Source of the DNA: Stramenopiles sp. TOSAG23-6 | Taxonomy: Eukaryota | Direction: 5' to 3' | DNA: 33,096 nucleotides | Assembly (NCBI GenBank): GCA_900128565.1 | Contig: LT635956.1 | Coordinates: 1-33,096 of the forward strand | Shown here: positions 1 through 32,226 of the stretch, piece by piece | Numbering within the stretch: the stretch's first letter is position 1 | Layout: each line of letters begins with the position of its first letter | Position numbers and translations under genes: made by a program | Notes under the pieces: generated by a model | Seen by the model: only the letters and a program-made list of their open reading frames with translations | Told to the model about the DNA's origin: nothing | Databases searched by the model: none

Positions 1-106
1 TATTTTGGAAAAATATTTCAAAAAAAAATCTAAAAAAAATTGTTAGGTACAAAATGTACTATAAAAAAAATTCGATTTTTTTGTTAAAAAAAAAAATAAA
101 ACATAC
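1..106 (-). other. REV1 intron 3, repeated intron family, truncated by the window edge just before its 3' end
   Basis: ATA T|GTATGTTTTATTTT donor right after GGHGI; core GTACATTTTGTACCTAAC; ends ...TGAAATATTTTTCCAAAATA at position 1, matching the 3' tails of other copies. Confidence 0.85.
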
Positions 107-2512
107 ATATGCCATGACCTCCTTTTTTTGACGGTTCATGTATTGTAAAAAAATATGTTTCAAGTTTGAAATTCGTTAGGTACAATTTTTTTTTTTTTTT
201 GTAAAAAAAATACATTTGATATTGAAGTGTATTTTGGAAAAATATTTCAAAAAAAAAAAAACTAAAATTTGTTAGGTACAAAATGTCGTACGAAAAATAA
301 ATTCGAAATTGAAAAAAAAATAAAACATGACAACATACAATAGGTTGTTCAACCTGTCGACGTTTTATTTTCACAATGAGTCGATTTCCACACATTTGGG
401 ATTCTTGGGCTCTCTTGCTAATCTCTTCTGACATTGCATAAATAAATTCTTTCCATTCAAGATGATCCTCTTCTATTAAATAATCTTCATTTTTTGGTCT
501 ATTTGGAATATGTATCGATTTTGTTTTGTTTTGAAGACTATCTTTTAAATGCAGTAATGATAATTCTAGTTTATATGAGCGTCGAAAACGAATTCCCCAA
601 TTACAAACAGCACTGATAGATCTTTTATTATTTCGTGTTTCATCCAGATTATTGGGACTTTCATTTTTTTTTTTATTTGGGCTAATGACAGTACCAAAAG
701 GTGATGCATCAGTTATAGAAGAAGTAGCTATGGACTTCATAGGAGATGTATGTATGGATTCAGGGTCAATTCCGCGACATAAACGCCAAAAATTAATACC
801 TCTTTTAGTACCAAATAGTTGTCGGAGATTTTCTTTTGTTTGTTTTTGTAATGAAACTATCGAATTTATATTATTTGACGCAAAAGCTCTCAACGTTTTA
901 CGGCCAATACCAGGCAAATTGCGTAAATTAAATTTTGCAACAAATTCTAATGCGGCTGTTTTATGTATTTTGGAAAAATATTTGAAAAAAAATTCGTTAG
1001 GTACAAAATTTCGTACGAAAAAAACATTCGAATTGAAAAAAAAATAAAACATACATACGCATCTTTTTCAAATGTAGAAATATGAGAGCTTTGAACTACT
1101 GTATTTGATTTAGTTTTTGATTTCGTCGGTGTACTCATCCATGCCCTATCTGCGTCATATGTTTTATTCATTGTTTTATATGTATATGTACAAGGTGCTA
1201 CAAACATCCCATTTGGTTTAGCTTTTATTAAAGCTAGTCGAGCAAGAATTTTAGAAGTACCAATACCAACGGATGCAGTACATCCAATTGCAATTTCTAT
1301 ATCTACACGTATTTGATTTGCAATTTCCTCCGCAGTTTTAGATTCTCCAACTTCAGTACTAATGACAGATGTATTATATGTACATTTCCAACTAGGAAGA
1401 AAAATTAATGCCTCGTCAATACTTTTCTGTATAAATCGGCCACCTAAAGATGAGGAATGCTCAGATAATATACTCATCACAGTTTGAGAAAAGTTTTTAA
1501 TCATTTGTGTGTTGTATGGAAGCACAACAAGATATTTACATTTCTCTGCAGCAGTTTTTACATACATGCCCGCACGAATTCCAAATTTTCGTGCTATATA
1601 ATTTGCACTAGATACTTCACTTGTACTGGTTGTTTTATTATGCAAAGTAGAATTTTTAATGCTACCTGCATGGGCAACGACAACTGCACAACTTCTGATA
1701 TTTTTTTGTTTCTTTTCTGCAATTTTCATTGCAACTGCAGCAAAGAAACAATCCATGTCAATGTGTAATACAATTTCCCCCATATAAACCATTGCTTTCA
1801 ACTCAGCATGTTTTTCACTACTTTGGTCATTTGTTCTCCAAGTACCAATGGTATTGAGGCGACTTTTCTTCCAAAATTGTTGAAGAAATATTTTATCCAT
1901 TCTGCGTCTATGACAACCAGTGACTCGTGATGCTCGTGATGTCTGGTATTGTCGAGCATTTGAGCTTTGCTTATTGTTAGATTTTATTGATGTTTCAGAT
2001 TGTACGGATAAATTACTCTTTCTAAATATTGAGCTTACTGACGGCTGCGTTGTATTTCTGACGGTTGGAATGAGGTGCATTTCCACATGCTCTAAAGTAC
2101 CTGAAGCAACACTATGCATTATCCAAGACGGGAGAACTACAGGACGAAGTTTCTGACGACTTGCACCACTTGCAGTTCTCATTTCCTCCAACTTGTTGCC
2201 AGGAAGAGTAGTAGCAATAATATGAGTTGTTCGAGAGGCTTTGTAAGTATCAAAATCTCCACCATGAATCATTACTGTTTTATGAAGAATTTGTGCTGAT
2301 GGCTCCGTGAAACCATCAACATATATACAAATACCTTTAAATAGTGTAGATTCAGATGTATCCGTTCGAAACCTCTCAAACTGTAGTTTCATTTTCTTTC
2401 GCTTTGTAGTCATATAAGTGTGCCCACAACCACCATGATGAAGCTTGTCTGGTAAATCATCTGGGTTCTTTCGCTTTTCCGTTGACAAGGTAATTGATAA
2501 GGGTGAACTCAT
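107..2512 (-). CDS. REV1: DNA repair protein REV1 (Y-family deoxycytidyl transferase), spliced and 3'-partial; inferred exons 2512-1055, 962-339, 137-107, continuing beyond the window start
   Basis: N-terminal BRCT-like segment (FKGICIYVDGFTEPS...THIIATTLP...VVLPSWI), SRL N-digit, HIDMDCFF and SIDEA catalytic motifs, ASVGIG..KILARLA..KAKPNG, HhH NLPGIG, RSISAVCNWGIRF and KGGHGIC, spread over ORFs 947..2512 and 84..1052. Confidence 0.93.
138..338 (-). other. REV1 intron 2 (201 nt, compound, two core motifs), inferred GT...AT ends
   Basis: Removing GTATGT...ACAATACAT joins KRRQVEQPI to EPSKKGGHGIC, matching the REV1 motif spacing; contains two TTGTACCTAAC cores. Confidence 0.85.
225..331 (-). 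mobile_element. Inner family copy apparently nested in REV1 intron 2, flanked by TT
   Basis: GTCATGTTTTATTTTTTTTTCAATTTCGAAT...TCGTACGACATTTTGTACCTAAC...TTCCAAAATACACTT closely resembles REV1 intron 1; removing it leaves a 94-nt family-like intron. Confidence 0.55.
963..1054 (-). other. REV1 intron 1 (92 nt), repeated family, inferred GT...AT ends
   Basis: Frame switches between ORFs 947..2512 and 84..1052; TAT|GTATGT...TTTCGTACGAAATTTTGTACCTAAC...CCAAAATACAT|AAA restores frame into ALEFVAKFNLRNLPGIG. Confidence 0.85.
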
Positions 2513-2691
2513 TCTTTTTAAAGTATTTCACTTAACGAAAGCATATATATATAAATAGATGCTCAGTTATCGATTAATATCAATGATATCAATTCACATT
2601 TCAAGAAACTGCATCGCAAGAAGAAGAATATTTTCTGTTTCTTCTTCCCTTTTGGAATTGGAACGCAGGTTCTTCTGCTCTTCTTTTACTG

Positions 2692-2703
2692 TGCCACGTG
2701 GCA
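2692..2703. promoter_or_regulatory. Palindromic G-box/E-box-like site TGCCACGTGGCA in the divergent REV1/ATP23 intergenic region
   Basis: Perfect 12-bp palindrome with a CACGTG core in an AT-rich intergenic region; function not shown. Confidence 0.35.
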
Positions 2704-2833
2704 TTTGATTTGATGGCCAACTTTTATTATCGACTTGCAAGCAGCAACCTTCTACAATAAAATATAGTAGCTAGTAGCTAATGGTAGATCAAGTGTGTGT
2801 CCGATAAAATTCGAAATGTTGTAGCATAAAAGT

Positions 2834-3589
2834 ATGGGTGGTAGTAGCAACCAGAATAATGAAAATACAGATAGTGGTCTAGGTGTTGCTGCGTGTGTAG
2901 AAGCTACAAAGAAAGCACTGAGTACAGGTCGTCTCAATGTTCTGGTACGAGAATTATCGAAGCGAATAAACTGCAAGTTCAAAATTTACGCTGAAAACTC
3001 CAACCATTCAAGTAAACTAAATGAAGATTCACCTGGTCAGTTATCATTTGTTGAAGCTGGTCAATTCAATTTTTCTAATAGCGAAAGTAGTAGTAGTAGT
3101 AGTATCAGTAGTCAAACTTCAGAACTTCCAATAATTGTTCGACAATGTGTCAAAGATGGTGTTGAGGGAAATGCCCGCGCTTTCTTTTCTGATCCGAAAT
3201 CTATTACACTCTGTGCAAATCGACTTCATTCAGAAAAGGATGTAACAGATGTTATGGTTCATGAGTTTGTTCATGCATACGACTTTTTGGTTCTCAAAAA
3301 AGACCTTACAGACTGTGAACAACTTGCCTGTAGTGAAATTAGGGCGAATCGAGATGGAGAGTGTTATTCTAAATATGCTGAACAGGATAATAAGGGGATG
3401 TATTTTGTACAAAAACTAATGAAGTATAAGGAGAGAACGTGTACACTAAACTCTGCAATTCGTGCGACGCAATCTTTCTTTCCAGAAAAAGCTGAAAAGT
3501 GTGTAAAAACAGTTTTTGAAGAATGCTTTCAAAATCGAATACCTTTTGCTAGTCGTGGGCTTAAAAGTACAAAAAATGAGGCCAAGTGA
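2834..3589 (+). CDS. ATP23: Mitochondrial inner membrane protease ATP23 (peptidase M76)
   Basis: ITLCANRL, HEFVHAYD (HExxH), CEQLACSEIRA and C-terminal CVKTVFEECF..RIPF; intronless. Confidence 0.9.
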   Translation: MGGSSNQNNENTDSGLGVAACVEATKKALSTGRLNVLVRELSKRINCKFKIYAENSNHSSKLNEDSPGQLSFVEAGQFNFSNSESSSSSSISSQTSELPIIVRQCVKDGVEGNARAFFSDPKSITLCANRLHSEKDVTDVMVHEFVHAYDFLVLKKDLTDCEQLACSEIRANRDGECYSKYAEQDNKGMYFVQKLMKYKERTCTLNSAIRATQSFFPEKAEKCVKTVFEECFQNRIPFASRGLKSTKNEAK

Positions 3590-3868
3590 TATACATACAG
3601 TAGTTAGTAAATGTTGTTTACTAGCTTGATGGTATTATTTATGGCTAATTTAAGTTATATATAAAAATATGTGTAGAAATGAATCCGAAATGAATCTCAA
3701 AAGAAATTGAAAATTGAAAATTTGAAGGGATTTCAAAGCGATTTCAAAATTTGAAACCGTCATCTTTTTTTTTGACCAGTACTTTTCTTATACCCACGTA
3801 AAGAAGGTAGTAGCATTAGGATCATTGCAATACAATTTCATATATATGATGCATACGTTTGAAAGAAA

Positions 3869-6800
3869 ATGACTCGCACATTTCGCTCAAATATATCTCA
3901 GTGGTCACATTCCAAAGTTGCAATAGAATCTAAACTACAGAGGCGGGCCGTACATGAGAGAGAGTATGCTTTGTCTCGCCTCTTATTTGAATCTAAAGTT
4001 TCTAAAGAAATTAAAAGACGCAAAATTGAAAATATGGCCATATATGCAGCAAAGGACGCCGCTATGGCTTCCAAAGTAGCATGCCATGCTGTTGAACATA
4101 CTTTTAATATCATGAAACGAATGAAGAAACGAGTTTCCAAAGCAAAGCGTCGTGCAAAACAACTTCAAAAAGAGCGAATGAAAATTATTCATAGTAAACT
4201 TAGTGAAACATCAGTTGTAGTGGGGGATTTAAATATAGTTGAAAGTACTATGGATACATCTAGCTTTGGTTCTATTATAATGCCAGAGAAATCAATAGGA
4301 TTATTCGATGGTAAAATGAAACAAGCTACTTCTGTGAAAAAAAATCCAAATGAAGCTCAGCAAAAAACAAATGAAAATGATTTTGTTGCTGAAATTGTTA
4401 CTGAAAATATAAATGCATCAAATGATACTGAAAATGATACTGAAAAAGCCACAAATAAAAACGTTTTTGTCGCTGAAATTGTATCTGAAAATATACAACC
4501 TGAGAATAAAGATAAAATAGTAGAAATTATCTCAGAATCTCTTCATTATGACGAAATATCCGAGAAAATACCTGAGAAAATAGAATCGCCAGTTATTATA
4601 CGAAAACAAAATAAACAAAATACACTCGAATCAAAATTAGCACATCGTGATAAAATGTGGGAAGAAGCAGCAACTCGCTCCAAACGCCGGATAAATCTGC
4701 TGCAACATCTTGAAAACAGTTGGTTAGAAACAGTTGAAGAAGCTGAAGCGGACTTTTTACCCCCTCCTTTACCGCCTAAATTATTGGATGTATGTAGCAT
4801 TGTAAATGCTCAGCAAAAAGAACGCATTTCTAATCGATTGCGGTCAGCGTGGAATAATGCAAAACAAAATGCGGAATTGACAGGTAATCCGATACCCCCA
4901 ATACCACATCAATTAGTTACAATCAACGAATCAAAACAGCAATTTAATAAAAAGAATGCGCTTTCTAATCCTAAACGCGTAAAGATGAAGAAAGCTGTGG
5001 GATTGAAAGTGGTCAATACAAGTAGGAAAAAGAAAGTTATTCCAGTGAATAAAAGACAGAAAAATAGACGTAAACGACGTAAAAAGAGAATTTCTAGAAA
5101 TGTACCACCAAAGTTACCAATGAAGCAAGTATTGTCTCGAATAAAAGCTGTTCAAAAATTACTTGTATGTCGTATTGGAGGCTGTGACAATGAGCCACAA
5201 TACATCAAATCAAAAAATCTTTGGTCAGAATATTGTGAACAACATATGTGTCTCATTACGGGATGCGCAAATAAATCATCTAGCTGGAGTGGTATGTGTG
5301 CCACGCACGATGCAATATCTGTTTCATTCGTAATTGATGAAGCTTTAGTGCAGGAAAAATCAATGGCTGAAAAGCGTGAGATTTTCCGATTAAAAAGGGA
5401 GACACGAAAAAGATTAGAAAAAAGAAAAAGAATACTAGACAAAAAACTAATTAAATTTCGAGAAAATAGACTTCGAAAATTTGGATATACTGAGGAATAT
5501 ATTCAAACCTTGAACCAAAACTTTGAAAACATGCTCATCGCATTGAAAGCTGAAGAAGCAAAACGTAAAAAGAAGCGTAAAGTCAAGAGTAAATTGCGTA
5601 GAACAAAATCTATAAAGAGAAAGTTAAAGAGGCAATCGAAAAAAATATTTCATAAAAGGGCTCCAAAACAAAAGTCACTTTTAAAGAATACTTTGGAGAA
5701 AGATGTTAAATTACCTCCAATTCTAGAAAAGGCAAAGTGTGCTCGACGGATACAATCTTTACGCCGTGGATTCACTTCGCGTCGTTCACTTGCTGCTTCT
5801 CGTGCAGCGGCAGTATCACAAAGGGCGTCAATAGATGCCAGAATGAAAGCAGCATCAGCTTTACCTGCATGGAGCAAAATCGATGCAGAGATGCATCAGA
5901 GAGTTCTTTCCCGTGCGGGAACAAGTCGAATGCAAAAGGCGTTGTCTGAGGCTTTTAAAGTGGAATCATCATCTGGCGATGATAGTGATGATTCAGAGAG
6001 TGATTCGGAGATTTCAGCAAATGATGTGGAAGAAGTTCTTGATGAAAATGGTGAAGTTGTAAAAATTCAAATGCCAAAGATGACACAAAGGGATGCTGAA
6101 ACAGATGCAGAATATTTAGAACGAATGACTCGTGAATATGCCTTAGCAAAAGCTGCAACAATGCGCAAAAGGCTTGAAGCAAAACAATTTAAACCTGCAC
6201 AAAAATGTCAACGTATGGTCCGTGGATGGATGGCAAGAGAAAAGTATAAGATACTTCTGAAAGAAGTCAAAGCAGCACGCCAAATACAAAGAATATGGCG
6301 AGGTCTAAAAGGTAGGCGTATATGGGAAATGCTTTGTAGTCCAGTTTGGATGGATATTCTCACTCCTGAGGGATTAATCGATAAAACATGCAGTCGTGTT
6401 CGTTGTACTGTTGTATCCATCTATCATATTGCTGGTAAAAAATATGCAAGTGTTGAAGTTATGAAGACTACTAAAGGTAAAGAATGTGGTCTTATCGGTG
6501 TAAAGGATGATGTACTTGTGGAAAATTTATGGGGTAATGAAGTACGCAATAAACCTGTACCCTGGGCTAAAATAGTTGATAAACTCCGACCTTCTAGTGT
6601 AGTGAATAATACAACAAAAAAAAGATATAAAGCTATTAAAATTCTGAGAAAGTCTCTAGCCCAAGTTCATTCTTGTTTAGACAGTATACGTGATGATCTC
6701 AGAAAATCATTCGATGTAGAAGATGTACAGGAGTCCACTGCTATCACAAATTCTGCTCTGGTTCGTTTGGAGGAAGCAGTAAATATTATTGTACCACCTC

Positions 6801-7279
6801 TACCTCATGGGACTAAACCAAATGAATCAAATCAAGAGTTGTTTCAAACACGGGGACATTTCAAAACAGCAAAGGAAAAGCTGATGCGATCTTTACAACG
6901 TGTAGTGGTAGTGTGTGCGTTTTCATTATGAATTTCAAATTTTTTTTTTTTTTCGTACGAAATTTTGTAACTAACAAATTTCGAATTTAATTTTTTTTAC
7001 AATACATGTAGCGAGGAAAGCCTTTTAAAAGTTGGTCACTTTGGAACGATTCAAATGGGACCGAGACGACAATCCAGTGCTGCTCAACTTGAAGTTATAG
7101 AAACTGAGATAGTTGAGGCAGTTGCAGAAATTGAACAATTGGGTAATTGGGTTTTAGACTATGATACATATGGTCAGTCATATTACGTGAATACGAAGAC
7201 TGGGGCAACTGAATGGCAGAAGCCACGTTTGACGAATATGAAAAACCTCGCTAAAATAGGCTTTTTCAGTAATTGGTAA
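3869..7279 (+). CDS. Large basic coiled-coil protein with IQ motifs, a Cys/His zinc-finger-like pair and a C-terminal WW domain (~1105 aa, one intron)
   Basis: IQ motifs RRIQSLRRGFTSRR, KCQRMVRGWMAR, RQIQRIWRGLKGRR; CRIGGC...CEQH and CLITGC...CATH; the WW domain WVLDYDTYGQSYYVNTKTGATEWQKP joins in frame after removing the intron at ~6915-7007. Confidence 0.8.
6915..7007 (+). other. Intron of the repeated family (93 nt); GTGCGT...ATACAT preferred, GT-AG alternatives (6913 or 6919 to 7011) also in frame
   Basis: Contains the in-frame TGA ending ORF 3869..6931, a T-tract, TTTCGTACGAAATTTTGTAACTAAC and TTTTACAATACAT. Confidence 0.8.
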
Positions 7280-7336
7280 TAAATAAATGTGTAGGAAATA
7301 AGTGAAAATTATGATATTATGAAATTTAGTATTTAT

Positions 7337-8294
7337 TTAATTGAGATCTGTAGGGAGAATTGCACTAGGTTTGTGATAAGTACAGTTATCTTTAACTTTA
7401 CTGTCTTCGACTTGAACTGTAACATTATTCAAATCACTACCTTCTGTTTTTGATTTAACAGTATGCAAAACAATACGTTCTGTTTTTAACGCACTTGACG
7501 AGGTAGTACTAGGAGCTACTCCATTTTTTACATTTTCTGTTCTATTTAGTCTTTTCTGCTTTGCGGCTTCTTTGCGCGCTCTAAAAGCTGCCGCCTGACG
7601 AGCTAAAAGCCAATCATAGGTACCAACACGCGCCCAGACTACCAAATATAAATGAAAACCAAGTAAAGATAGAAACAAAGTGTTGTCAAAAAATATTTCA
7701 AAAAACAAATCGTTAGGTACAAAATTTTGTACGAAAAAAAAATGAAATTCATAAAGAAAACGTACAAGCTGTAACAATTCCAGCTATTAAAGCTTGAATT
7801 GCAAAAACTATAGCAAAAATTATTGACTCGTCCTTGAAACGCCAATCTAAAAATATTAATATATTGACTAGAGTTTGTGCGCCAAATTGAATCGTTCCAA
7901 ATGTAATGAGGGCAAAGAAAATTGGGTAGTTACGCTTCCCAATACAAGTGTTAAGCCACATACAATGATGATCCAATCCTTGAACATGTTTGTAGCACAA
8001 AGTACAATAATGTTTCTGACTTTGTGTTTTACTCATACACACACATGGTATACCACCTGGTTCAGCAGGGTCAATAGTTTCGACTAGATACCAAAGAATA
8101 AGAAAAGTGATAACTAACACTGAGTAAATTGTTAGACACGTAATCAACTCAGTTTTATATTTATCATCCCAAAGGGCAATGACAGTACCGATATAAAATG
8201 CGATAGTACATAAGGACCATAAAACCCACGTAGACTTTTGCTCTCGCGAATATGGTTTGCTAAATCCATTTATACGGCAAGCATTATTGACCAT
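7337..8294 (-). CDS. DHHC palmitoyltransferase (zDHHC), inferred exons 8294-7766 and 7677-7337 (~289 aa)
   Basis: RINGFSKPY N-terminus, HYCTLC...DHHCMWLNTCIGKRNY, four hydrophobic segments; TM4 LLGFHLYL and GTYDW lie in the second frame. Confidence 0.92.
7678..7765 (-). other. DHHC intron (~88 nt), repeated family, non-AG 3' end (inferred ...ACAACACTT)
   Basis: GCT T|GTACGT donor, GTACAAAATTTTGTACCTAAC core, and no AG between the core and the conserved LLGFHLYL codons. The exact 3' end is uncertain by whole codons. Confidence 0.8.
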
Positions 8295-8606
8295 ACCTAT
8301 TTAAATAGAAAAGAAGGACAAAGAACAGCAATCACCTCTTCAAGCAAAAGGTAGTATTTTGATTGTAACTATGCCACAAGTTTTATTTCTGCCAGGATAC
8401 TTTTATTCGAAGTGGCAACTTAAATCAATAGTTTTATCTATTAAAATCCTCAATATCAAATATTTTCTACCCCTGGCTCGGCTGATACTTATTGAGTGCT
8501 TCAATAATATCAACCAATGCTGCTGAAACAACAACACGACGTCCCCGGAGAATGAATGACATGCGTGAAATATTTTTTCAATTAAAACTGATTGATGGCC
8601 AAGGAG

Positions 8607-8625
8607 CCCTAAGCCCTAACCCTAA
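8607..8625. repeat. Short interstitial telomere-like repeat (CCCTAA x3)
   Basis: CCCTAA G CCCTAA CCCTAA in a divergent intergenic region. Confidence 0.55.
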
Positions 8626-8821
8626 CGCTATAATGCAATAGAAGTAAATTAGAAATTCAAAATGTGATGCTCGCTCCATTCATACTCATGAAGAAGAAGA
8701 TCTCCAAAATACTGTATCTACACAGTGAGGAGAAGAAGATAAACGCTTGAATAGATAACGATTGTCATTTACTAGAAGTGCTACATTACATATTTCTTAC
8801 GTTTTCGATAATACTACAGGA

Positions 8822-9454
8822 ATGAAGATAATGTTTCGTACTCTCATAAACTGTTTGCTTCTTCTAACACCAGCTATGAGTGTTAACTATACAAAGGATG
8901 ATGCTTGTACCATAATGAAAGATTTAAAATCTTTCGGGGTCGTAAAAGTTTGCGATGATCTTGGATTTTCTGCTTGCAAGGCAATTATCAAACATAATAA
9001 TAATGAAGCATTCTCGTGTGATCTTGTATGTAAAGAAGTTAGTCTAACTTGTTCAGCGGCGTGGAAAGTTGAAGCTACATGGGCAACTTATGAAGGAACT
9101 AAAAAGGACTGTCCAAAGGACGGCGACGGGGAAGTTACACTTTTAGCAACTTCTAAATCATGTGAAGTCTCGAATTCTGATAATAAGTATTGCGAATGCC
9201 AAAATATTAGAGATAAGGACATTTCGGTGTACGATTATCTGCTCATTATCGTTTTCATCACTTTCCCTGTGATCACGCTTATCTGTTTCACTCTTTCGTG
9301 TTGGACCTTAAGGACAGGAAAATTAGCTGAAATTGAGGCTGAAGAAGATGCACATGTTGCGAGACTGGTTAAATCAGCTGATGATTCCGGTCTTAAGAAG
9401 GATATTGAACCAAATGAAGTTAGATCTGCCGAAATGACGACGCTAGTCAAATAA
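8822..9454 (+). CDS. Cys-rich type I single-pass membrane protein of unknown function
   Basis: First ATG gives a signal-peptide-like MKIMFRTLINCLLLLTPAMS, followed by a Cys-rich ectodomain, TM YLLIIVFITFPVITLICFTLSCW and an acidic tail. Confidence 0.75.
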   Translation: MKIMFRTLINCLLLLTPAMSVNYTKDDACTIMKDLKSFGVVKVCDDLGFSACKAIIKHNNNEAFSCDLVCKEVSLTCSAAWKVEATWATYEGTKKDCPKDGDGEVTLLATSKSCEVSNSDNKYCECQNIRDKDISVYDYLLIIVFITFPVITLICFTLSCWTLRTGKLAEIEAEEDAHVARLVKSADDSGLKKDIEPNEVRSAEMTTLVK

Positions 9455-9770
9455 TAAAGTTGAAAAAAAAAAAATTAAACAATTCTTTAGACCTGATTAT
9501 AAAGATTTTTGTTTTAGAAGTTTTTAAAATGAGTAAATAAATAGGCTATGTCGATGTAATGAATTCTAATATATATATATATGAAAAATAATTTGTATTT
9601 GTTGTACACAATCCTAATTTTGAATTTTTCGAATGTATGAATTCAATTAAGATGTGATAGATAAATTAAAATTTAATACATATGATCAAAAATAACTATA
9701 TTCTTACTTTTATTTAAAACTTCAACAATGGTAAAGATGTCATTTTATGACTAACACAACACAACAGGTT

Positions 9771-10568
9771 TTATTTTCGTCTATAAATGTGCACTGAGGA
9801 TTGTCCCCAAGACTGGTGATATTTTTGTTTCAAAATCAATTCAAAACAATCTGATAGTAGAGGTTTCGTGTTTGTAATGAATATTGCACCTGACTGCAAG
9901 AGCTTTCCGCAGACTGAAATTTTCTCCATTAAATTTCCATCGAAGCATGTACTATTAGCAAAAATTATATCACCAATGGACCAATTAAAATATTTCCGTG
10001 GTTTTATCTCTGAATTGGAAGGACTCTTCACAGAAGAAATATCGGCCTGATAAAATTCTATTGTGGTTGGAATTTTTTTTCCCTTTACTTCACTAATATA
10101 CCTTTGGTGGCAACTCTCTGCAAGCTTATGTAAAGTTGGCATTAGCTCTATCCCAATACAACGATTAAATTGTATCCATGGTTGAAGTGCCGCCGAATAT
10201 ACAGTATTTCCGGCCCCGGAACCCAAGTCAATAAACGTCAATTCGGAAGACATTGGTTTACAGTGCTCCATAATATATCGCAAAATTCGACAAATACTAG
10301 GAAACTCCATTACGCCATACGTAAATTTTGGTACGTATCGTTCTCCTCGCTCTACACGATCGGTTATAGAAGCCGCTTTTGCGTCTTTGTAGGGAATAAC
10401 TATTTTTGAAAATGATATTTCAGCCGCAGTCTCTTCTGGTGTAGGTCCTTCGCCTCCTAACCAAATGTCCACAGTTGTAGAATCCGAGTCACTGTCAAAG
10501 TCGCCGAGTGTGTGTAATTTTGTGCTTAAACTATGCATTAGGCATCCAATACTGGAGTCACCACTCAT
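9771..10568 (-). CDS. DOT1-like class I SAM-dependent methyltransferase
   Basis: TYGVM, FIDLGSGAG (motif I), CIGIEL, FYQADI, DIIFANSTCF and terminal SWG..SVHIYRR. Confidence 0.8.
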   Translation of the reverse strand: MSGDSSIGCLMHSLSTKLHTLGDFDSDSDSTTVDIWLGGEGPTPEETAAEISFSKIVIPYKDAKAASITDRVERGERYVPKFTYGVMEFPSICRILRYIMEHCKPMSSELTFIDLGSGAGNTVYSAALQPWIQFNRCIGIELMPTLHKLAESCHQRYISEVKGKKIPTTIEFYQADISSVKSPSNSEIKPRKYFNWSIGDIIFANSTCFDGNLMEKISVCGKLLQSGAIFITNTKPLLSDCFELILKQKYHQSWGQSSVHIYRRK

Positions 10569-10745
10569 ATGAAAATAACTCTGATTGATTTAGATTACTT
10601 TAAAAAATAACCGGAAAGAAGGGCAACTTGCACCGAAATAACGGAAATAACGTCTTTTCCGTTATCTCCTATATTGTATTATTACCTCTAGCTACACCAG
10701 GTCCTACGTACGTACTAAGGTACTACAGAATCCTGAGCTAGTACC

Positions 10746-12243
10746 ATGGATTTTACTGCAAGTAACATGAACTTCGATGAAGAATTGCAAGCTAAAAGTC
10801 CGATAGGGAAGAGGACAACTATCTTTCAGAGAGCCCGGAACGTAGTAGCGCACAAAACTATACGTATAGCAACAGAGCAACCCGATTCAATGTATACAGA
10901 AGCCTCTGATAACTTCTTCCGTCACGATCAGGAATTACAGGACCTTCATCGAAATGTACAATCCCTTGTAAGCGACGCAACGCGCTTTGCATCATCTTTA
11001 ACAAGGGTAATGGCTTCGCTTGTAACTTTAGGTGAAGATTCAACTATTGTTGGCGATAATGAGATGAGCCGACGAGAACACGCTAAAGTCTGTATGAAAA
11101 TAGCGACGCTAGTAGAACAAAGTTTTGTTCAGCCCTTGGAAACACAGGTATTAAATACACTTGATATAGCATGCTGCAAGAATAGAGAGACAAAAGAAAA
11201 AATGAAGGACCGTCTAAAAATAAAACGCGAATACGACGTAAGTTTATTTTTTTTTCATAGAAAAATTTGTATCAAACAAATTTCGAATTTGTTGAAACGA
11301 TCACTTTTCCAGTTTTCACTCATTTCTAAAAACCATTTTCTAATTTCACACTTCACAGCATTATGTCGAAAAATGTAACAGGTTAAATGTAGAATGTATA
11401 TCGCCATCGTCTTCGTTCAAAAACAAACAACAAACTGAGCAGAAACTGAATCGAAACCAGACTGTATGTTTTCTTTTTTTTTTCTTACAAAAAAATCGAA
11501 TTTTTTTTTCGTACGAAATTTTGTACCTAACAAAAAAAACATTTAAAAAACAATTCACAGTACATAAACTTTCCTTTGCAACTGAAAATTTACGAGAATC
11601 CACTGCTGAGTTGATGGGAGTTTTCAGTGATATGCGAAAACAACAGGCGCCAAAAGGTGCTAAGAAGGAAGCTGTGTGCATTTGGCAAGCTATTTCTGAT
11701 TTATTTTCAAAAGGCCATTCAATTTTCAATAATTCTATCCAATCCATCGGAACAAATAAAAATAATGAAACAGAAGAAATCAGAAAAGTTGAAGATGATT
11801 ACAACAATATTTTTGGAAGTGATGATACAAAAACGAATAGTTTAATTGAAAGTAATATCCTTGATTATAGTTCACATGAAAATGTCGGAAATACATCATC
11901 TCATAGTGAAAATGAATCTTTATATGATCTATATAGTGAAGCACTATCTCCACGTACTGAAAATGAATCTTTATATGATATGTATAGTGAAGCGCTGAAA
12001 TCAAGTCCAAAATTTAGTCATAATCCTACAATGTTGAATGAAACTAAAACCGAAAATGTAGACAATTTTAGTAATCCATTTGCGAACAACCCTAGTACTA
12101 TGCTGAATGAAACTGATAAAACAGAAAATGTAGACAATTTTAGTAATCCATTTGCGAACAACCCTAGTACTATGCTGAATGATAAAACAGAAAATGTAGA
12201 CAATTTTGGTAATCCATTTGCGAACAACCCATTTGAAAAATGA
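10746..12243 (+). CDS. BAR-domain-like protein with C-terminal NPF repeats; inferred exons 10746-11237, 11359-11463, 11566-12243 (~424 aa)
   Basis: Helical N-terminus; spliced product reads KDRLKIKREYD|HYVEK...KLNRNQT|KLSFATENL, as in BAR helices; the tail carries repeated NPF motifs. Confidence 0.7.
11238..11358 (+). other. Canonical GT-AG intron (121 nt) containing a decayed family core
   Basis: GAC|GTAAGT...TTCTAAT...TTCACAG|CAT, phase 0; its 5' half resembles the family core. Confidence 0.85.
11464..11565 (+). other. Intron of the repeated family (102 nt), inferred GT...AT ends
   Basis: ACT|GTATGT...TTTCGTACGAAATTTTGTACCTAAC...CACAGTACAT|AAA; the nearby CAG is out of phase with the GTATGT donor. 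Confidence 0.8.
11908..12234 (+). repeat. Coding tandem repeats: 2x ENESLYD(L/M)YSEAL and 3x ~66-72 bp TMLN..KTENVDNF(S/G)NPFANNP
   Basis: Near-identical nucleotide repeats visible at 11908/11959 and from ~12022 to 12234. Confidence 0.9.
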
Positions 12244-12463
12244 TAATATGGATACCGCGCGAATGCAAAACAATTTATTTACTTAAATTGTATTATTCAA
12301 TGAATAAAATTAATATAATTCGCACAAACCTGTTTTTTGTACCTAAATGTAACGGCGTTTCAATGTTCCATCATTTTGTATATCTTCTTGCAAAAGACTA
12401 CTACTACAATCTTTTTGTTGATTAAGGGACAAGTACACGTAAAGGTGGATTTTCTCTCTCACT

Positions 12464-15400
12464 ATGGGAGACTTATCACCTTTATCGCAACAGTTTCGTC
12501 TAAAGGTTCCACCACCTTCGCCAAGAAGTGGACGGAAATCACCGACACGTACTTTTAAACTCCCAGTACGAGAACCTGGCTCTCCAAGTGCAACACCAAA
12601 AGTCACATCACGAAAAACTTTCAAACGAGTAAAGCCAAGTAATTTTAATCATCCAAATCGTAATAATCTATCCAATCCATCGGTGCCATCATCTAGAGAA
12701 TCACGATATAGTCATTTTAATTCAAAGGAATATATTGCACCAAGCAATCGTATTGCTAGTAACTACACACCTACTGCTGCTGGGCTCTCGTTATCGATCA
12801 TTTCAGATGCACTCAGTGGTCGACCAGGCTTTTCGTCTCCTTCGCGTAAGGAACGATCAAAGCGTAGAATGAATTCGTCAAACAGTCGAACGGTGACGTT
12901 TTCGGCTAGCGATTTTGGGTCTGGGTCGCAAGGACGACGACACGATGACACCGCACGTAGTAACCCAAATTACCTTGACTTAAAGGTTAATCTTGCTCCT
13001 GGTGAAAATATCATTCTTCCTTCTCCTAAACGTGGAAATGAGAGATCAATGCAAGATTTGTTTGAGTGGAGTCCAATTTCAGAAGAAGGTGATGAAGTCA
13101 AGGCTAGCGATTTCAATATAACTAAAAAGACTCGAGGAATAACAGCATTACAAAGATTTAATTCTCAATATCTTCAGCGAAACGTGAATCGTTATTGGCG
13201 TGTACTTCTTAAACAACCTAATGATAAGCTTCCTAAACTTCGGGATACGTGGTTAAAGCATGCACTTATTCGTATGGGTATTATTGCTCAACCTGAACAT
13301 GAAAGTGTGATTGAAAACCTTTTGGTTGAAATCAAAGCTCTTTACTTCTGCTCCTTGCAACAAATTAATTTGGATTATGAAATCAAAAACCCTGATGTTT
13401 CAAATAGACTGAGTATTGACTATGACGCACTTTTATTCTCTCGAAATTGGATGGCTAGTCCAACATCTCAACAAATTATTCAAAATCCACACATGACATT
13501 TGATTGGAAAGTTCTTCGAAATACATTTATTAATAGCAAACGGATTGCCAAAAAGCGCTTACTCATCCAGACATTTTTTGATGTGCTGGAACAAACTATG
13601 CAAGCATTACAAAATATTTGGTATATTCCAAAACAGGTGAAAGACTCTCCACTCAAACATTCCAAGGCATTGGTAGATACAACATTTGTTGATGTTGCTA
13701 CTAAAGACTTTTATAAAATGCTTCCTCTGGAACCAGATCAGTTTTACGATTATGTAGTCAAACAGATAAATACGCATCGATCTCACCTCCGATCAGCTTG
13801 GCTTGACAAAATATTCACAATACTTAGTGCCGTTTCGAAGCGTATGATATCTGAACAATCATCGCCGCAAATGGAAACAACAGTTTCTAAAACAAAAACA
13901 AAAAAATCAAATGGGTCGTCAAAGGGTGTTCATCGCAAAACTACTACCACAAAAAGACACGAACGCAGTGATGAAGATGTATTGTTATCAGCCGCATCTA
14001 CAGTTATGAGCAAACAACTACGATCGTGCTCTGAAAACTCATTAAATGCACTTCTTGGTTGGATGGAATGGATGACTAAAGATAAGCCCAATACACACGC
14101 AGGTTTTCATATCAAGTTAAGTGTCACTCCCCATGTAAAAGAATTGTCAAAAGATTGGGACCAAAACAGCGCTGATAAAAGTGTAGCTATTGGAGACTCT
14201 GATGAAGAACCTGAAGACGACAAGGGCGACTCTACGTCTCAAGATAATTCACCGTTCACTATATCGCCTTCTACTGACGAAATGATTGATATACTAACAA
14301 AATGTGTTGAAAAGATCATGAATGCAGATCAAAACTTTCCATCGGCAAAGCAGCTTGTTTTTCCTGATAAAGAATCTCGTAATCGAACATTGAGTGCATG
14401 TCAAATGAGCAATGAATCTCCAATTGTTCTGCTCGTAAAGGAACGAATTGCTGAAATAGTGCAGAACAATTACTCTGCGCCTCTTGCTCTTCTCGCATCT
14501 TTTGAAAAATTCAAGTCTCTCTTTGATGGTACAGAAGAAGAAACTATCGGCAACACTATAGAACAGATTGAGGAGTTACAGGAATCTGATGAACCGGGAG
14601 CAAGCATTACTGTTCTTGAACTTGTTCGAAAGGAACTTGTTCGCTTGTTTGAAGTAGCGGAAGATGCGTGTAATTTTACTGAAGATACTGTGTTTTATCC
14701 AATGTTTCAGGTGGATGTTGTGGAGTTTAAAAAGGCATTAGAATCTCGAGCACTGTTACTTGCAGATAAGCTGATGTCTGTGGTAGTTCTCGAAAACCGA
14801 AGACAAATGAAATCACTCTGTAGTATCTACGAAAATATGGCCAATGTTTTGATGACAACACCCCAAGACACCACTGCTCTCCGTAAACTTCAAGACTATT
14901 GGATAAAATGCGACGAAATGTTTCTCAAAATGAAGAAAACAGCCAACGAAGAAGTACATAGTCGCGTGCTATTTGTTTTAGAATTGGGCAAATGTTATGA
15001 AGATCAGAATAATGCCCATTTATACGGTGAGGACATAATAATGTATGGGAAACTTTTGGAATGGCCACGGCACATTATGGATTTCCATGAAAGGTCGCGT
15101 ACAATGCAACAATCTAAGAAAGGAGAATTAGAGTCAGTTTTGATGATGCGAAAGAGTACATTTGAAGATGAATTGAAATCATGTTCACTCACATTGTCTA
15201 CGTTGAAAGCAGAGAGTGCCTATACACAAGCCATTGTAAAGAAAAATCTGGCCAAGATTAAGTCTCTAACTAAAGCTCTTGAAAATGCAGAAATGGAAGC
15301 TACTCGAATTAACGAGCAAGAAGTGGAAGTCGGTCTTGATGAACCTACTGGCTACATTGATGATATCAAAACAATGCAAGTTGAAATAAAACCTCTGGGA

Positions 15401-18400
15401 GAGATGTGGCAAAAAATCGAAGAATATTTCACGTACATGCAACAATGGACAAAAACACCGTTATATCAGTTAGATGCAGAGACAATTGAAAATGATGCTG
15501 ATACATTAAAGCGCAATTTTGGAAAGCTTAAGAAAACTTTCACAAAACTTGACTTGTTGGAGGCACTCAAAATTTCTGAGAAAGTTGCAATAAATGTTGA
15601 CACTTTCATGGATGATATGGTGCCACTTCTAATGCTAGTCTGTACACCAGGGTTGCGTCTACGTCACTGGAATAAAATTGCGGAAATAACAAGTCTGGAC
15701 ATTGAATGGCATCAAGAAGCTTGTCTTTCTGAAGTGACTGAGTTAGGTCTTCAAAATTATACAGCATCAATTGAAGAAACGTGTATTACAGGTGTCAAGG
15801 AGTATTCCCTTGAAAAGGCTATGGATAAAATGGAAGAAGAATGGCAAGGAATGACGTTCGAATTGACTGCTTACAGAGACACTGGAACACATATTATCTC
15901 GTCAATTGACGATATCCAACAAATTCTTGATGATCAAATTGTAAAGACCCAAGCAATGCGAGGATCAAGATATATAACACCATTTTTAGATCGTGCAAAT
16001 AAGTGGGAATTTATTCTCAAGAATCTTCAAGACATTATTGATAATTGGCTCAAAGTACAAGGTGTATGGTTGTATCTGGAACCTATTTTTTCATCTGATG
16101 ATATCAATAAACAAATGCCAAAGGAGGGTGAAATGTTTCGAGGAGTAGATAATGTATGGCGCGACTCAATGAAGAAAACATCTGACGAACCCGAAGTACT
16201 CAAAGTTGCTCAACGTAAAGGTTTGGTGAAAAGTTTGTTGAATGCGATTGATGTATTGGAACAGATTCAAAGGGGCTTGAATCAATATTTGGAAACAAAG
16301 AGACTTTTCTTTCCAAGATTTTTCTTTCTTTCTAACGATGAGTTACTTGAAATTCTTGCTGAGACAAAAGACCCTCTTCGTGTGCAACCACATCTTAAAA
16401 AGTGTTTTGAAGGAATCAATAATCTGGTTTTTGAAGATAATCTTGATATTGTAGCAATGAAATCTCGCGAAAAAGAACAAATTGTATTCGATTATGATAA
16501 GATTAATCATAAATTGGTGAATCCAAATGATGCCGCTGGTTGTGTTGAGGTGTGGCTCTTGCAAGTCGAAGAAACGATGCGTCGTTCAGTCGCATTACAG
16601 ACTAACTTGGCTATGATAGATGTAGAAGAACGAGAACGCACAGAATGGCTCACAATATGGCCTGGACAAGTTTGTATTAGTGTATCTCAGAAAAAGTGGA
16701 CCACAGAAGTAGAACAGGCTTTCCTCGATGATAATCTTTCAAGTGTATCACAGACTCTTCAGGATGGTTTAGTCAGTATTGTCAAACTAGTACGCGGGAA
16801 ACTTCCAAAACTAGCTCGAAAAACAATTTCTGCTATTTGTGTAATTGACGTACATAATCGTGATGTTGTGAAAAACATGTGCTCTTTAGGTATTGATTCA
16901 AAAACGGATTTTGATTGGATGGCACAGCTTCGATACTATTATTTCCCTGACTTTGGTTCTGAATTGACTGGAAAGCCAGGAACTATTCGATGTAGAATGA
17001 TATTATCAGAAATTAGCTATGCAAATGAATATTTAGGTAATTCAATGCGTCTTGTGATTACTCCATTAACAGATCGGTGTTACCGCACACTCATTGGTGC
17101 TGTCGCATTGGATCTTGGTGGAGCCCCCGAGGGACCTGCAGGAACAGGGAAAACAGAAACTGTAAAAGATCTTGCAAAAGCTCTGGCTATGCAATGTGTT
17201 GTTTTCAATTGTTCAGATGGTTTAGATTTTAAAGCAATGGCTAAATTTTTCAAAGGTCTGGCTTCATCTGGTGCATGGGCTTGTTTTGATGAGTTCAATC
17301 GAATTGTACTAGAAGTATTGTCTGTTGTTGCACAGCAGATTCTTACGATCCAACGAGCAAAGATCGAAAAGAAAGAAAAATTTCTATTTGAAGGTACAGT
17401 TATTTCTTTGAGAACAACCGCAAATGCGTTTATTACTATGAATCCTGGGTATGCTGGAAGAGCAGAGTTGCCTGATAACCTTAAAGCTCTGTTTCGCACT
17501 GTGGCAATGATGGTTCCAGATTATGCTATGATTGCAGAAATTATCTTATATTCGATGGGTTATTTATTAGGAAAATCACTTTCAGTTAAAATTGTACAAT
17601 GTTATAAATTATGTTCTGAACAGCTTTCAGCGCAGAGACATTATGATTATGGAATGCGGGCTGTAATGGCTGTACTCCGAGCGTCTAATAATTTGAAGCG
17701 AGCCGATATGGACAGAGGAAGTGGCGATACAGATGAAGATGTTTTATGTCTAAGAGCGATTATGGATGTAAATTACGCAAAATTTTTATCACATGATTTA
17801 CCTCTATTCAATGGAATTGTAGGTGATTTGTTTCCTGGAGTTAAACTACCAGAGATTGATCGAACAAACCAACTAAGAGCAATGAGGAAGGCTTGTAAAG
17901 TACTTAAACTACAGCCTACTGCGCCATTTCTTACAAAGACAGTTCAAATATATGAAATGATGGTGGTTCGTCATGGTTTCATGATTGTAGGCCTTCCATT
18001 TGGTGCAAAGACTTCGGCATGGAAAGTATTACAGCTACAAATGGGAATTATGAATGAATGGTATCCTGAGGATACTAGATGGACTCAAGTCCATGTCGTA
18101 GTAATCAATCCAAAAGCGCTAACTATGGGACAGCTATATGGACAATTCGATCCAGTTTCTCATGAATGGACTGATGGTGTGATTCCTATATACTACAGAA
18201 ATATGGCAAATAATAAAATAGGAAAGGCTCCAGACCGAAAATGGATGTTATTTGACGGACCTGTAGATGCTATTTGGATTGAAAATATGAACACTGTGTT
18301 GGACGATAATAAGAAACTTTGTCTAATGTCCGGTGAAATTGTTGCTATGAGTGATGTCATGAGCATGATGTTTGAACCAATGGACTTAGATGTCGCATCA

Positions 18401-21400
18401 CCTGCCACTGTTAGTCGAGTTGGAATGATTTATATGGAACCTCGTGATTTAGGATGGAGACCTTTACTAGATTCTTGGCTGCAAGGTTTAGTGGATGATT
18501 CTACGTATGATGAACTTGTTGATAAGAAAAGACAAATGGATGAAGAAGGTGAAGAAGACGATCGACCATTCTTGATTACATCTAAACAAGCATGTACTAT
18601 TGAGCTTATGTTTGAATGGTTGGTTGATCCTTTATTAGAATTCCTTCGAAAAGAAGTAAAAGAACAAAGTAAAACACAGGATCATTTCATGGTACAGTCT
18701 ATTATACGCATCGTTGAATCATTGTTAGAACAAACACTAATTGGTGCTCATGACATTGATAAAATGATGCGCGAAGCTGATAAAAAACAAAAAAAGAAAA
18801 AGAAGAAGAAAGGAGATGACGATGAATATGACCCCGATATACGGAATCGTATTACAGAGGAACTTATTGAGTCGATATTTTTAGTTGCGTGTACATGGTC
18901 TGTATGCTGCTCAACTGATCATATTGGGCGTGCGAAGTGGGATATATACTTTCGAAAATTACTCCAAGGTTCTGATTTTATTAAAGAAGAACACAAATCA
19001 GTTTATAGAGGTCTAAACTTAAGAGGTTGGGTTGCGCCTCGATTTGACCCAGAAGGTAAAAGAAATACTAGAAAGCTACAAAATCCAATTCCAGATGGAT
19101 CAATATACGACTATATGTACGTCCCACCTGAAAGCGCAAAGAAAAAGGGGAAATGGGTGACCTGGTTAAGTCAATTGAAAGATTTAAACGTCGCGAAAGA
19201 CGCTGACTTTTCATCTATTTGTGTACCAACGGTTTACACTGCATCTTTTGAGTGGATATTAAAGTTATTAGTTACACATAAGATCCCAGTTCTTGCATGT
19301 GGTCCAACAGGGACTGGAAAAAGTGTGTACATCCAGAATGTTTTGAATAAGCAAATGCCCAGAGATATAAATGGTTTTGGGTATGTAAATATTCAACTGG
19401 GGTTATCAGCAAAGACGACGGTCAATATGGTACAATCTATAATTGATGGGAAATTAGACAAAAGAAGGAAAGGTGTATACGGTCCGGCCGCAGGGAAAAA
19501 TTGTGTCATATTTGTTGATGATTTGAATATGCCTGAAATCGAGGAATACGGCGCCCAGCCGCCGCTTGAGTTACTGCGTCAATTAATAGGATCTGGAGGT
19601 TGGTTTGATATGAAAGACAAGACCTGGCGGAGTCAAGTAGATACACAAATAATTGCTGCAATGGGTCCACCGGGCGGTGGTCGCAATACTGTATCTCCGC
19701 GTACATTACGACATTTTAATCTAGTTTGCTTTGTTGAGTTTTCAGATGATACTTTACTCCGAATTTTTAGCTTTATCGCAAAATGGCATTTTGATTGCAA
19801 CAACTTTGATGCATCTATCAAAAAGAAGTCCAATAATTTGGTGAATGCGACTATTGATATGTATAACACTGCAAAAGATAATTTATTGCCGACACCGGCA
19901 AAATCGCATTACATATTTAATCTTAGAGATGTAGCTCGTGTAATTCAAGGTTTGCTCTTAGTTAAGCCTTACACAGATATTAACGTAGATGTTGTTACAA
20001 GACTTTGGTTGCATGAATGTCAGCGAGTATTTGCAGATCGCCTTGTAAACACCGAAGACGGTGATTGGTTTACTCAGAATGCTGGTACTCTAATATCTCG
20101 ACATTTTGGAACAACTTTAGACAAGGTTTGTGCTTCAATTGCCAATGAAGAGAAACAAGTAGGCCGTCTTGAGTTGCGAAGACTATATTTTGGAGATTAT
20201 ATGATTCCTGGTGCAGCAAGTAAGAGTTACAAAGAAGTTATTGAATTAGAGAAAATGAGTAAAGTATTTAATCACTATCTTGAGGAATTCAATTCAATGA
20301 CTAGAAAAAAAATGGACTTGGTGCTCTTTCAGTTTGCTATCGAACATTGTAGTCGGATAATTAGAATGATGAATATACCAGGAGGTAATATGTTACTTGT
20401 TGGTGTTGGAGGTTCTGGGAGACAATCTTTAACAAGACTTGCCGCATCGATTGCTGATTATGAATGCTTCCAAATTGAAATTAGTAAAAATTATACTACG
20501 GCTGAATGGCGAGAGGACATGAAAAAGGTTCTGATTGGTGCAGGTACCGGTCAACGCCCCTTCGTTTTCTTATTTTCAGATACACAAATAGTTGAAGAAT
20601 CATTCATTGAAGATATCAATAATATTCTAAATTCTGGAGAAATCCCAAATCTCTTTTTAGCTGATGAAAAAATGGAAATTGTCGATCGCATTCGTGGAAT
20701 AGCAAAAGCCACGTTTGGACGAAAGGCAGAATCAATGAATGCTGGTGATATGTACAACTTCTTTGTGAAAAGACTAAGAGATAGATTACACGTCATGCTT
20801 GCGTTTTCACCTATTGGTGATGCTTTTAGAGAGCGATTAAGAAAATTTCCTTCTTTGGTTAATTGTTGTACAATTGATTGGTTTATGGAATGGCCTTCTG
20901 ATGCATTAGTTGCAACAGCGGAAAGATTTTTGAACGACATCAAAGTAGACAGTGAAGAAATACGTGCGTCGATTGTTAACCTTTGTCAATTTTTTCATGA
21001 CTTTACTTTTGATTTGAGTAAAAAGTATTTACAGAAGCGTGGACGTCATAATTATGTGACCCCAACATCTTATCTTGAACTTATCAAAGCGTATAAAATA
21101 TCGCTATCGGAAAAACAAATTGAAGTTCGCGCCGCACGGGATAGATATACAAATGGTGTGCAGAAAATTGAATTCGCCGGAGAGGCTGTTAGTAAAATGC
21201 AAGATGAGTTAATAGCATTACAACCAGTTTTAAAACAAGCACAAATTGATACAGATAAACTCATGGTTGAGATCCAGGAAGCCCTTCCAGGTGTCGAAAA
21301 AATTAAAGCAAGTGTATCTAAAGAAGCTGCAGCGGCTCAAGTTGAGGCAGATAAATGTGCAGTGATGAAGAAGAGTTGTGAAGATGATCTTGCTGAAGCC

Positions 21401-25483: not shown

Positions 25484-25572
25484 TTGTGATTTAAAATACC
25501 AAATATTTTTATTTAGAAATAAAAAATGTTATACTACAAAAAAACACATATTTAATTGAGTTTAGCGCTCAA

Positions 25573-25866
25573 TCAGTGAAGTTTGCTGAATCTGCAGGAA
25601 ATAATATTATTCTTTAAATCAACATATTCTGTGCATAAACACCAGAAATTCCCAGGTGCTCCACCAGCTGTCAGTTCAACATTAGTGTCTCTCATATTTA
25701 TTCCAACTGCATTTTCAGCTGTATGATTCAAATGAGAGTATCCGCCTGTGTTTGTACTTACAGCTCCTCCAATATTGAACTCCCTTCGTACATTTTTCCC
25801 AATAAATTCTTTCGCTGCGTCACTTTTCAGTTCTATGATCTTGAACGTTTGATTTAAACCTGTCAA
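25573..25866 (-). pseudogene. Degenerate paralogous fragment of the 27669-28126 coding sequence
   Basis: LTGLNQTFKIIELKSDAAKEFIGKNV aligns with LTGLNDTFKIVELKTDDALEFEGKHV; degenerate GG...WCLCTEY where the other copy has GG...CCTICTLY. Confidence 0.55.
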
Positions 25867-31905: not shown

Positions 31906-32226
31906 CAAGCAAAAAATGTATTCAGCTTTTGAATAAGCGATAGATATATGTTAAGTATTTTTATTTGATAAAACATTAAATTTTATGAAGTTTCGNACTC
32001 NTGNTTTTCNTTTTTTATCNCCNAAAGTAACGGCAATTATTTATTTTTCTAAATATCGGAGATTATCTTCGACGAAGTAAACCCGAATAAAAATTCAAAA
32101 ACATTCTACACACTTTGTTTCTCCGGTGCTGCTCTCATCGAGAGATGGAACAGACGGTACGTAGATATTTTATTATCCTTCGTTATATTTGACTTTATAT
32201 TCTGAGATTTCAATATTTCTCATATA

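Follow-up and report, generated by a model that had tools for sequence, protein, structure and literature searches.

The stretch of DNA analysed here, termed the window, comprises 33,096 nt of contig LT635956.1 (assembly GCA_900128565.1, Stramenopiles sp. TOSAG23-6). Between positions 1 and 11565 it contains eight copies of a repeat of approximately 90 nt, spread over four unrelated genes, which are candidate introns with conventional 5' splice sites and, for the most part, an unconventional 3' end. The window is AT-rich (GC content 31-39%) and gene-dense, most genes being single open frames, and all eight of the introns recognised in it (1-33096) belong to this one repeat family. A protein search with the REV1 exon described below returned a public gene model (P0008) that is 100% identical to it, and the source label of that protein (eukprot: GSMAST32...) points to an uncultured marine stramenopile of the MAST-3 group as the host.

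The first of the interrupted genes encodes REV1 (1-2512, minus strand; BRCT and IMS domains) and is divided by three inserts, I1, I2 and I0. Its first exon (1055-2512, minus) encodes the BRCT domain and the IMS palm (Pfam IMS 7.8e-30, BRCT 7.3e-07), the exon that is open between I1 and I2 (339-962, minus) encodes the thumb and the start of the little finger and aligns to human REV1 (Pfam IMS_HHH_1 3.2e-12), and a micro-exon of 31 nt (107-137, minus) encodes EPSKKGGHGI. A large gene with a weak WW match 3' of its insert (3869-7278, plus) is interrupted by I3, a DHHC palmitoyltransferase gene (7337-8294, minus) by I4, and an unnamed gene (10746-12243, plus) by I5 and by a diverged copy, N1.

An nhmmer profile built from six copies and run over the 33-kb window recovered eight family members with E-values from 4e-18 to 2e-3, and nothing credible elsewhere. 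In REV1, on the minus strand, I1 (963-1054, 92 nt, GTATGT...ACAT, phase 0) lies between the palm and thumb domains, and I2 (138-338) is a composite of 201 nt made of two tandem units, a full unit (I2a, 225-338) ending in ACACTT and a 5'-truncated unit (I2b, 138-224) ending in ACAT. I0 (1-106, minus, tat/GTATGT, phase 1, CTAAC at 42-46; nhmmer E=2.1e-12) is cut by the window start, leaving 106 nt. I3 (6915-7007, plus, 93 nt, GTGCGT...ACAT, phase 1) occupies the 3' part of its gene, I4 (7678-7765, minus, 88 nt, GTACGT...ACTT, phase 1) has no AG inside it, and I5 (11464-11565, plus, 102 nt, GTATGT...ACAT, phase 0) has a weak U tract. An earlier, sequence-only reading of this DNA had listed inserts at six positions in four unrelated genes, each beginning with GTRYGT and carrying TTGTA(C/A)CTAAC; the positions, donors and exact branch motifs all hold, and I2b, which makes I2 a composite, and N1 are additional to that list. 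The copies share sequence along the whole intron length and sit in unrelated genes; we find the family better described as an introner-like element, a name that reading did not use.

N1 (11238-11358, plus, 121 nt; nhmmer E=7e-5) is 84% identical to I3 over 51 nt and is a plain GTAAGT...CAG intron. In place of the family CTAAC it has a mutated CAAAC, and 15 nt before the intron end there is a new TTCTAAT. The exon that follows (11359-11463) is open in only one frame, so that N1 needs its CAG, and AG is therefore also used as an acceptor in this genome.

All eight copies are in the sense orientation of their host genes and inside coding sequence, in genes on both strands, an arrangement with a probability of about 0.004-0.008 under random insertion. 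Pairwise identity across the family is 61-93%, and the nearest kin are physical neighbours (I1-I2a 93%, I1-I0 87%, I3-I4 77%; other pairs 61-76%). Reading frames past the inserts remain open for 208, 135, 89 and 225 codons, and REV1, with four units, has no other lesion. Direct repeats across the boundaries of the five complete copies are short (2, 2, 3, 3 and 1 nt). Target duplications of two kinds were considered and rejected: TA flanks only one of the five complete copies, and a perfect 3-nt direct repeat is present in two of the five, in one of which (I3) it straddles the splice point and is not purely flanking. The termini of one subfamily are weakly inverted, (GT)ATGTTTT versus AAAATACAT.

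The units carry what appear to be strong splice signals. With at most one mismatch allowed, TTGTAMCTAAC has ten matches against 1.26 expected, a count reached in none of 100 shuffles, and the seven exact matches are all branch sites of the family; CTAAC is exact in seven of the eight copies. The seven copies that retain a 5' end all begin with GTRNGT (GTATGT in four, then GTGCGT, GTACGT and, in N1, GTAAGT), with G1, T2, R3, G5 and T6 invariant and position 4 variable, and two subfamilies differ in the 20 nt that follow. This conservation has the constraint pattern of a working U1/U6-type donor, and N1, the sole copy with unambiguous splicing, uses this first GT as its donor. In six of six cases the exon ends in T ahead of the donor. 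Directly before CTAAC stands a near-palindrome, GTACGAAA/TTTTGTAC, for which some copies give a 6-bp hairpin fold.

The five complete non-canonical copies (I1 to I5) end at the same aligned position, A-C-W-T, as ACAT in four and ACTT in one, and the unit ends align without gaps (ACAATACAT versus ACAACACTT). These are the ends that had been predicted from the letters (TACAT four times, CACTT once, 32-37 nt after CTAAC), the measured distances being 33, 37, 32, 34 and 34 nt, or 34, 38, 33, 35 and 35 nt from the branch A, with a T run before the end in four of the five. In four of the five, the stretch from the branch site to the unit end is free of AG. Over the units AG occurs 4 times against 16.4 expected, as low in none of 5000 shuffles (GA, 20 against 16.3), a depletion that in large part reflects the shared consensus, since the copies have common ancestry and are not independent samples. 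Two devices had been suggested for setting the acceptor, and neither is supported. Distance from the branch point varies over 33-38 nt, and pairing of the ends amounts to 2-4 bp only (G1:C-3 and U2:A-4 in all five); no fold beats shuffles (minimum free energy z -1.1 to +0.3), and of the eight sequences folded, only I1 and the sub-unit I2a have a summed end-pair probability higher than that of 95% or more of the shuffles.

To define which cuts give a productive product, GT/GC-AG and AT-AC pairs were enumerated around each insert and kept if in frame and stop-free. With the GTRYGT donor the first AG past the branch site is out of frame in four copies (I1 +7, I2 +16, I3 +4 and I5 -5, relative to the unit end), and in I4 it lies at +39 (7639), in frame, where its use removes LFLSLLGFHLYLV, 13 conserved residues; both outcomes had been foreseen. 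I2 has no in-frame GY-AG pair at all, and a search for one- or two-intron solutions gave a single formal solution that leaves most of the insert translated. For I2 and I4 alike, no GY-AG pair yields a product that keeps the conserved residues. An AT-AC register shift fits I1 only. If the inserts are spliced and GTRNGT serves as the donor, all five complete copies require a non-AG acceptor at the unit end, or very close to it, for a productive mRNA to be made; if any donor is allowed, two of the five still require one.

Homology is informative at two of the junctions. In the DHHC protein, removal of the unit gives ..AGIVTA-LFLSLLGFHLYLVVWARVGTYDW.., which is ungapped against the homologue P0004 (..SGVIAA-LMLSLMGFHLYLILWARVGTYDW..). 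Alignment scores against two homologues are 611 and 453 for unit excision, versus 531 and 409 for the sole GT-AG model, and no neighbouring part of the protein is as well conserved as the segment that this model loses, in which 10 of 13 residues match P0004. In REV1, the alignment to the human protein (3gqc) reaches ..KIKRRQVEQPI and ends exactly at the I2 donor, directly before the peptide of the micro-exon; unit excision would carry this alignment on. Past that point human REV1 presumably has a motif, GGHGIC, that closely resembles the end of EPSKKGGHGI and is equally spaced. A 25-residue query around the micro-exon gave no PDB match. Protein searches returned only P0008 for the REV1 exon, only the open reading frame of the window itself and three distant homologues for the DHHC exon, and no matches for the exon after I3; translated I2, compared with 1.84 billion representatives, matched only P0008.

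P0008 itself covers REV1 (1-2512, minus) with a model that forces GT-AG borders. It drops real coding sequence (..GMFVAP/SALEF.. and 17 residues of the palm domain), reads through I2 in frame over its full length, and ends at a stop that falls inside I0. The family may have distorted many other gene models of this genome.

Contigs of three seawater RNA runs (metatranscriptomes; small shares of 0.14, 0.12 and 0.05) were compared with positions 1-12300, about 1200 contigs per run. Exons are represented by short contigs at a depth of about 2-6. Bins that include the repeat core reach a summed depth of approximately 80-3200 in two of the runs, versus 2-6 on exons: about 3000 at 1-410 and 11481-11890, about 1700 at 821-1230, and 81-136 at 7381-7790. 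This depth comes from other copies of the family and may represent unspliced RNA or DNA carry-over, and it suggests that the community probably contains at least hundreds of family copies. A 21-letter core pattern gave one chance bacterial match in metagenome contigs (L001), none in viral contigs and one chance bacterial match in genome contigs (L002).

The explanation that we favour, at a probability of roughly 55%, is that the copies are an introner-like family without AG, for which the major spliceosome uses an acceptor other than AG, in most cases CAU. An introner-like element is a small mobile sequence that turns any point of insertion within a gene into the site of a spliceosomal intron. 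Each unit supplies two strong signals, the 5' splice site GTRYGT and the branch site TACCTAAC, the latter just behind a short possible hairpin, and no AG. The first step would then proceed normally, by the major (U2-type) spliceosome at GTRYGT and CTAAC, and the exons would be joined after the last bases of the unit, A-C-W-U (CAU in four of five, CUU in one), 33-38 nt past the branch A and in most copies behind a run of U. Tolerance of such a 3' site could stem from relaxed second-step proofreading, of the Prp18/Slu7/Prp22 type, in this lineage. Older copies can turn canonical, as N1 did; I5 is perhaps moving likewise. We infer that the inserts are spliced because all eight lie in sense, their conservation resembles that of splice signals, frames of 89-225 codons remain intact, and REV1 is otherwise free of lesions; the cut presumably falls at the unit end. 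A wider proposition, held more tentatively and at slightly less than even odds, is that the major spliceosome of this uncultured MAST-3 lineage routinely ligates at ACWU (mostly CAU), as a natural parallel to the relaxed second-step fidelity of yeast prp18 mutants, and that AG-less introners have thereby colonised an otherwise intron-poor genome. Spread by reverse splicing would also fit the missing target duplications, the coincidence of unit limits with splice limits, and the clustering of nearest kin in one transcript.

A number of observations weigh against a non-AG acceptor. The sequence-only reading had relied on frame restoration, and all five complete copies do fit; deletion of an inserted unit, however, restores the frame by construction, so that the fit and the two ungapped alignments locate insertions and not RNA cuts. 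This argument holds for a unit that landed in an open frame and duplicated either no target bases or one T. In the three copies whose length is a multiple of three, frame restoration consists only of removing in-frame stops or foreign residues. Other HAU triplets occur upstream of the proposed cut, which leaves the choice of the exact base unexplained. In I5 a U run is missing and a good CAG stands 5 nt ahead of the proposed site; this CAG should be preferred, since N1 demonstrates an AG-recognising spliceosome, and I5 may in fact use GTTTTC...CAG or be in transition. In I0 and I2a an AG follows soon after CTAAC, 10 and 15 nt past the branch A. No RNA contig from the three runs spans any junction, and none of the 15 contig joints listed, of 25, lies at a proposed or an alternative junction, those listed connecting different copies of the family. 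Of the proposed AG-independent intron class, the repeated family with real GT donors and the two copies without a workable GY-AG stand, and the acceptor itself is as yet deduced from sequence. Finally, three of the five copies (I1, I3 and I5) can be spliced in frame as GT-AG through the donors GTTTTA or GTTTTC, 4 nt inside the unit, as had already been conceded, against 1.7 expected by chance (excess not significant, p about 0.2).

These three copies are the starting point for the strongest competing explanation, which we regard as unlikely, namely ordinary GT-AG splicing in which the nearest AG is borrowed, the donor is shifted to GTTTTN where needed, and 0-3 codons are gained or lost, with I2 and I4 mis-spliced and the resulting crippled or altered proteins tolerated. 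The in-frame, stop-free pairs it would use are 1050/956 (GTTTTA..CAG) for I1, 6919 (GTTTTC) or 6913 (GTGTGC) to TAG at 7011 for I3, and 11468/11560 (GTTTTC..CAG) for I5. In I4 the AG at +39 is in frame and about 20 hydrophobic residues would still be left for the helix, N1 shows that AG is used, and PMC9860276 describes families of introners by which adjacent codons are gained or lost. Against this, a poor donor, with T at +3 and +5, would have to beat a perfect GTATGT 4 nt upstream, and the conservation of GTRNGT would be left unexplained. The explanation also fails in two of the five copies, where it would destroy the conserved little-finger region of REV1 although all exons are open, and would remove from the DHHC protein the residues that are best conserved there. 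Were it correct, the finding would reduce to an introner family that is new, in a lineage that is new for introners, with imprecise side effects at the level of codons.

Recent insertion of transposons resembling miniature inverted-repeat transposable elements, which would be kept in the RNA and leave the hit genes broken in the sequenced cells, appears improbable. Precise insertion accounts for the frame fit by construction, one subfamily has weakly inverted termini, the adjacency of nearest kin (I1-I2a and I3-I4) is as expected of local hopping, and the repeat-core RNA depth of about 3000 could be unspliced RNA or DNA carry-over. It sits poorly with eight of eight copies in sense on both strands, with 5' and branch sites conserved like working splice signals, with a REV1 gene that holds four units and no other lesion, and with the inconsistency of any target duplication (TA in one of five, 3-nt boundary repeats in two of five). 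Removal outside the major spliceosome, by the U12 spliceosome, a euglenid-like route, self-splicing or DNA elimination, is very improbable, since the resemblance of the termini GUGCG...AU (I3) and GUAYG...AU to what we take to be the group II rule GUGYG...AY, and of GT-AT to what is presumably a rare U12-type pair, is set against a 5' site GTATGTTTT and not RTATCCTT, 33-38 nt from branch to end and not about 10-15, no Rfam match in the window, no significant fold, units of about 90 nt that are far below group II size, and signals of classical U2 type.

Few signals in eukaryotes are as constant as the AG with which introns end. To our knowledge, genome-scale exceptions are few (Fritillaria, Amoebophrya and the euglenids), and all of them have an unusual 5' end too. 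If splicing at a non-AG acceptor is confirmed, the family would combine a textbook donor and branch site with a changed acceptor only, a clean natural system for the study of second-step site choice, and would indicate that the latent CAU/UAU use of yeast fidelity mutants can become the normal mode. On the wider proposition above, the family would make up most of the introns of the genome, invisible to standard gene finders, and the public proteomes of these organisms would contain systematic errors. Faults like those of P0008 may be present in the MAST-3 proteomes on which phylogenomic work draws.

Elsewhere in the window, the dynein heavy chain gene (12464-25483, 13 kb) is one open frame of 4339 codons, and single open frames are seen in this gene and at least five others. 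In the region 25500-28500 the frames of both strands are short and broken. Two segments are duplicated there (26359-26436 versus 27096-27173, 88%; 26585-26650 versus 27174-27239, 94%), two related open reading frames lie at 25573-25908 and 27800-28144 (minus), and a GTAAGT-like site is seen at approximately 25905-25915 (minus); the region may represent a mobile element or a gene that was duplicated and has decayed. A telomere-like CCCTAA run of three units, one with an extra G (8607-8626), stands in the spacer that separates the DHHC gene from its neighbour, the next gene, and one contig of an RNA run lacks 7 bases at position 8605. Seven N within about 30 bases of spacer (31997-32025) mark a low-quality consensus. 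In-frame tandem coding repeats are found in three different genes, at 12045-12248 (66-72 nt), 30891-31055 (33 nt) and 32662-33096 (78 nt).

Set beside the known intron classes, the family has the extended GT donor of U2-type introns in all seven copies with a 5' end and a CTRAY-core branch site in seven of eight, and its ends are AT (four) or TT (one), the 3' AG being found in N1 alone. U12-type GT-AT and AT-AC introns likewise tolerate non-AG ends and have a loosely similar branch site (CCTAAC versus CCTTAAC); we take their consensus to be RTATCCTT at the 5' end and TCCTTAAC at a branch 10-15 nt from the 3' end, which the 5' sites GTATGTTTT and GTGCGTTTT and the 33-38 nt from branch to end do not fit. 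A group II or III intron, a class with conserved domain V/VI structure and the size needed for self-splicing, was rejected on the lack of any Rfam match, on units of 88-114 nt and on the lack of a significant fold, only the terminal letters being similar. A euglenid non-conventional intron, with variable borders and an end-joining structure in the portion of PMC4770533 that treats them, was set aside on the canonical donor and the folding z-scores given above.

The introners of Micromonas, Aureococcus, dinoflagellates and fungi, in the accounts given by the relevant parts of PMC9860276, PMC12130899 and bioRxiv 10.1101/2020.10.14.339549, are alike in that one repeat family forms the introns of unrelated genes, with its own splice signals and in sense copies, as here in a marine protist, and some families supply their own 5' site and take the 3' site from elsewhere. 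Many introner families, though not all, bear marks of transposons, namely target duplications, terminal inverted repeats or both. The families described in those parts of PMC9860276 and PMC12130899 end in AG (or AC), whereas the units here have no end AG and two of the five copies have none within reach. Introner surveys take annotated introns as their starting point, and PMC12130899 states that families were dropped if their splice sites were unfamiliar and RNA support was lacking, so that an AG-less family would have been missed; surveys based on GT-AG annotation would in general miss such families. Searches of the literature on introners and non-canonical introns of MAST lineages and stramenopiles yielded no description of this family and, for MAST lineages, no account of any introner or non-canonical intron, supplements lying outside the search. 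The word 'intron' occurs twice in one MAST genome paper (PMC5778133) and in neither of two others (PMC8163842; bioRxiv 10.1101/2025.02.28.640650), whose supplements might hold intron statistics. Gene models of the MAST-3 single-cell assemblies were built from transcript, protein and ab initio evidence, as stated in the pertinent section of PMC5778133, which does not deal with introns.

Two systems have non-AG borders on a genomic scale. Amoebophrya, in the sections of PMC7789003 on its introns, is also a marine protist with repeated introns excised at non-GT-AG borders and with short direct repeats at the boundaries. There, both borders are non-canonical without preferred dinucleotides, inverted repeats are 8-20 nt and direct repeats 3-5 nt, and U1 was not found, whereas the present family has a textbook GTATGT donor, a strong branch site, inverted repeats of 2-4 bp and direct repeats of 1-3 nt; an Amoebophrya-type introner element was rejected on the short end pairing and direct repeats. 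In Fritillaria borealis the major spliceosome handles non-AG 3' ends genome-wide, and by the portion of PMC13326754 concerned, 95% of introns escape GT/AG at both ends, with duplicated U2AF subunits and changed N6-methyladenosine (m6A) of small nuclear RNA, in contrast to a change at the 3' end only here. The closest mechanistic likeness is to yeast without Prp18, which, in the results of bioRxiv 10.1101/2023.01.12.523824 that bear on this, uses non-AG 3' sites, CAU and UAU being the best used of those without G, and needs a strong upstream poly(U). Yeast shares the GTATGT donor and a TACTAAC-like branch site with the present family, in which CAU ends and a U run are each found in four of five copies. 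In yeast, these non-AG sites are low-level errors of a mutant, whereas here they would be the main productive acceptor of a whole intron family in a wild organism.

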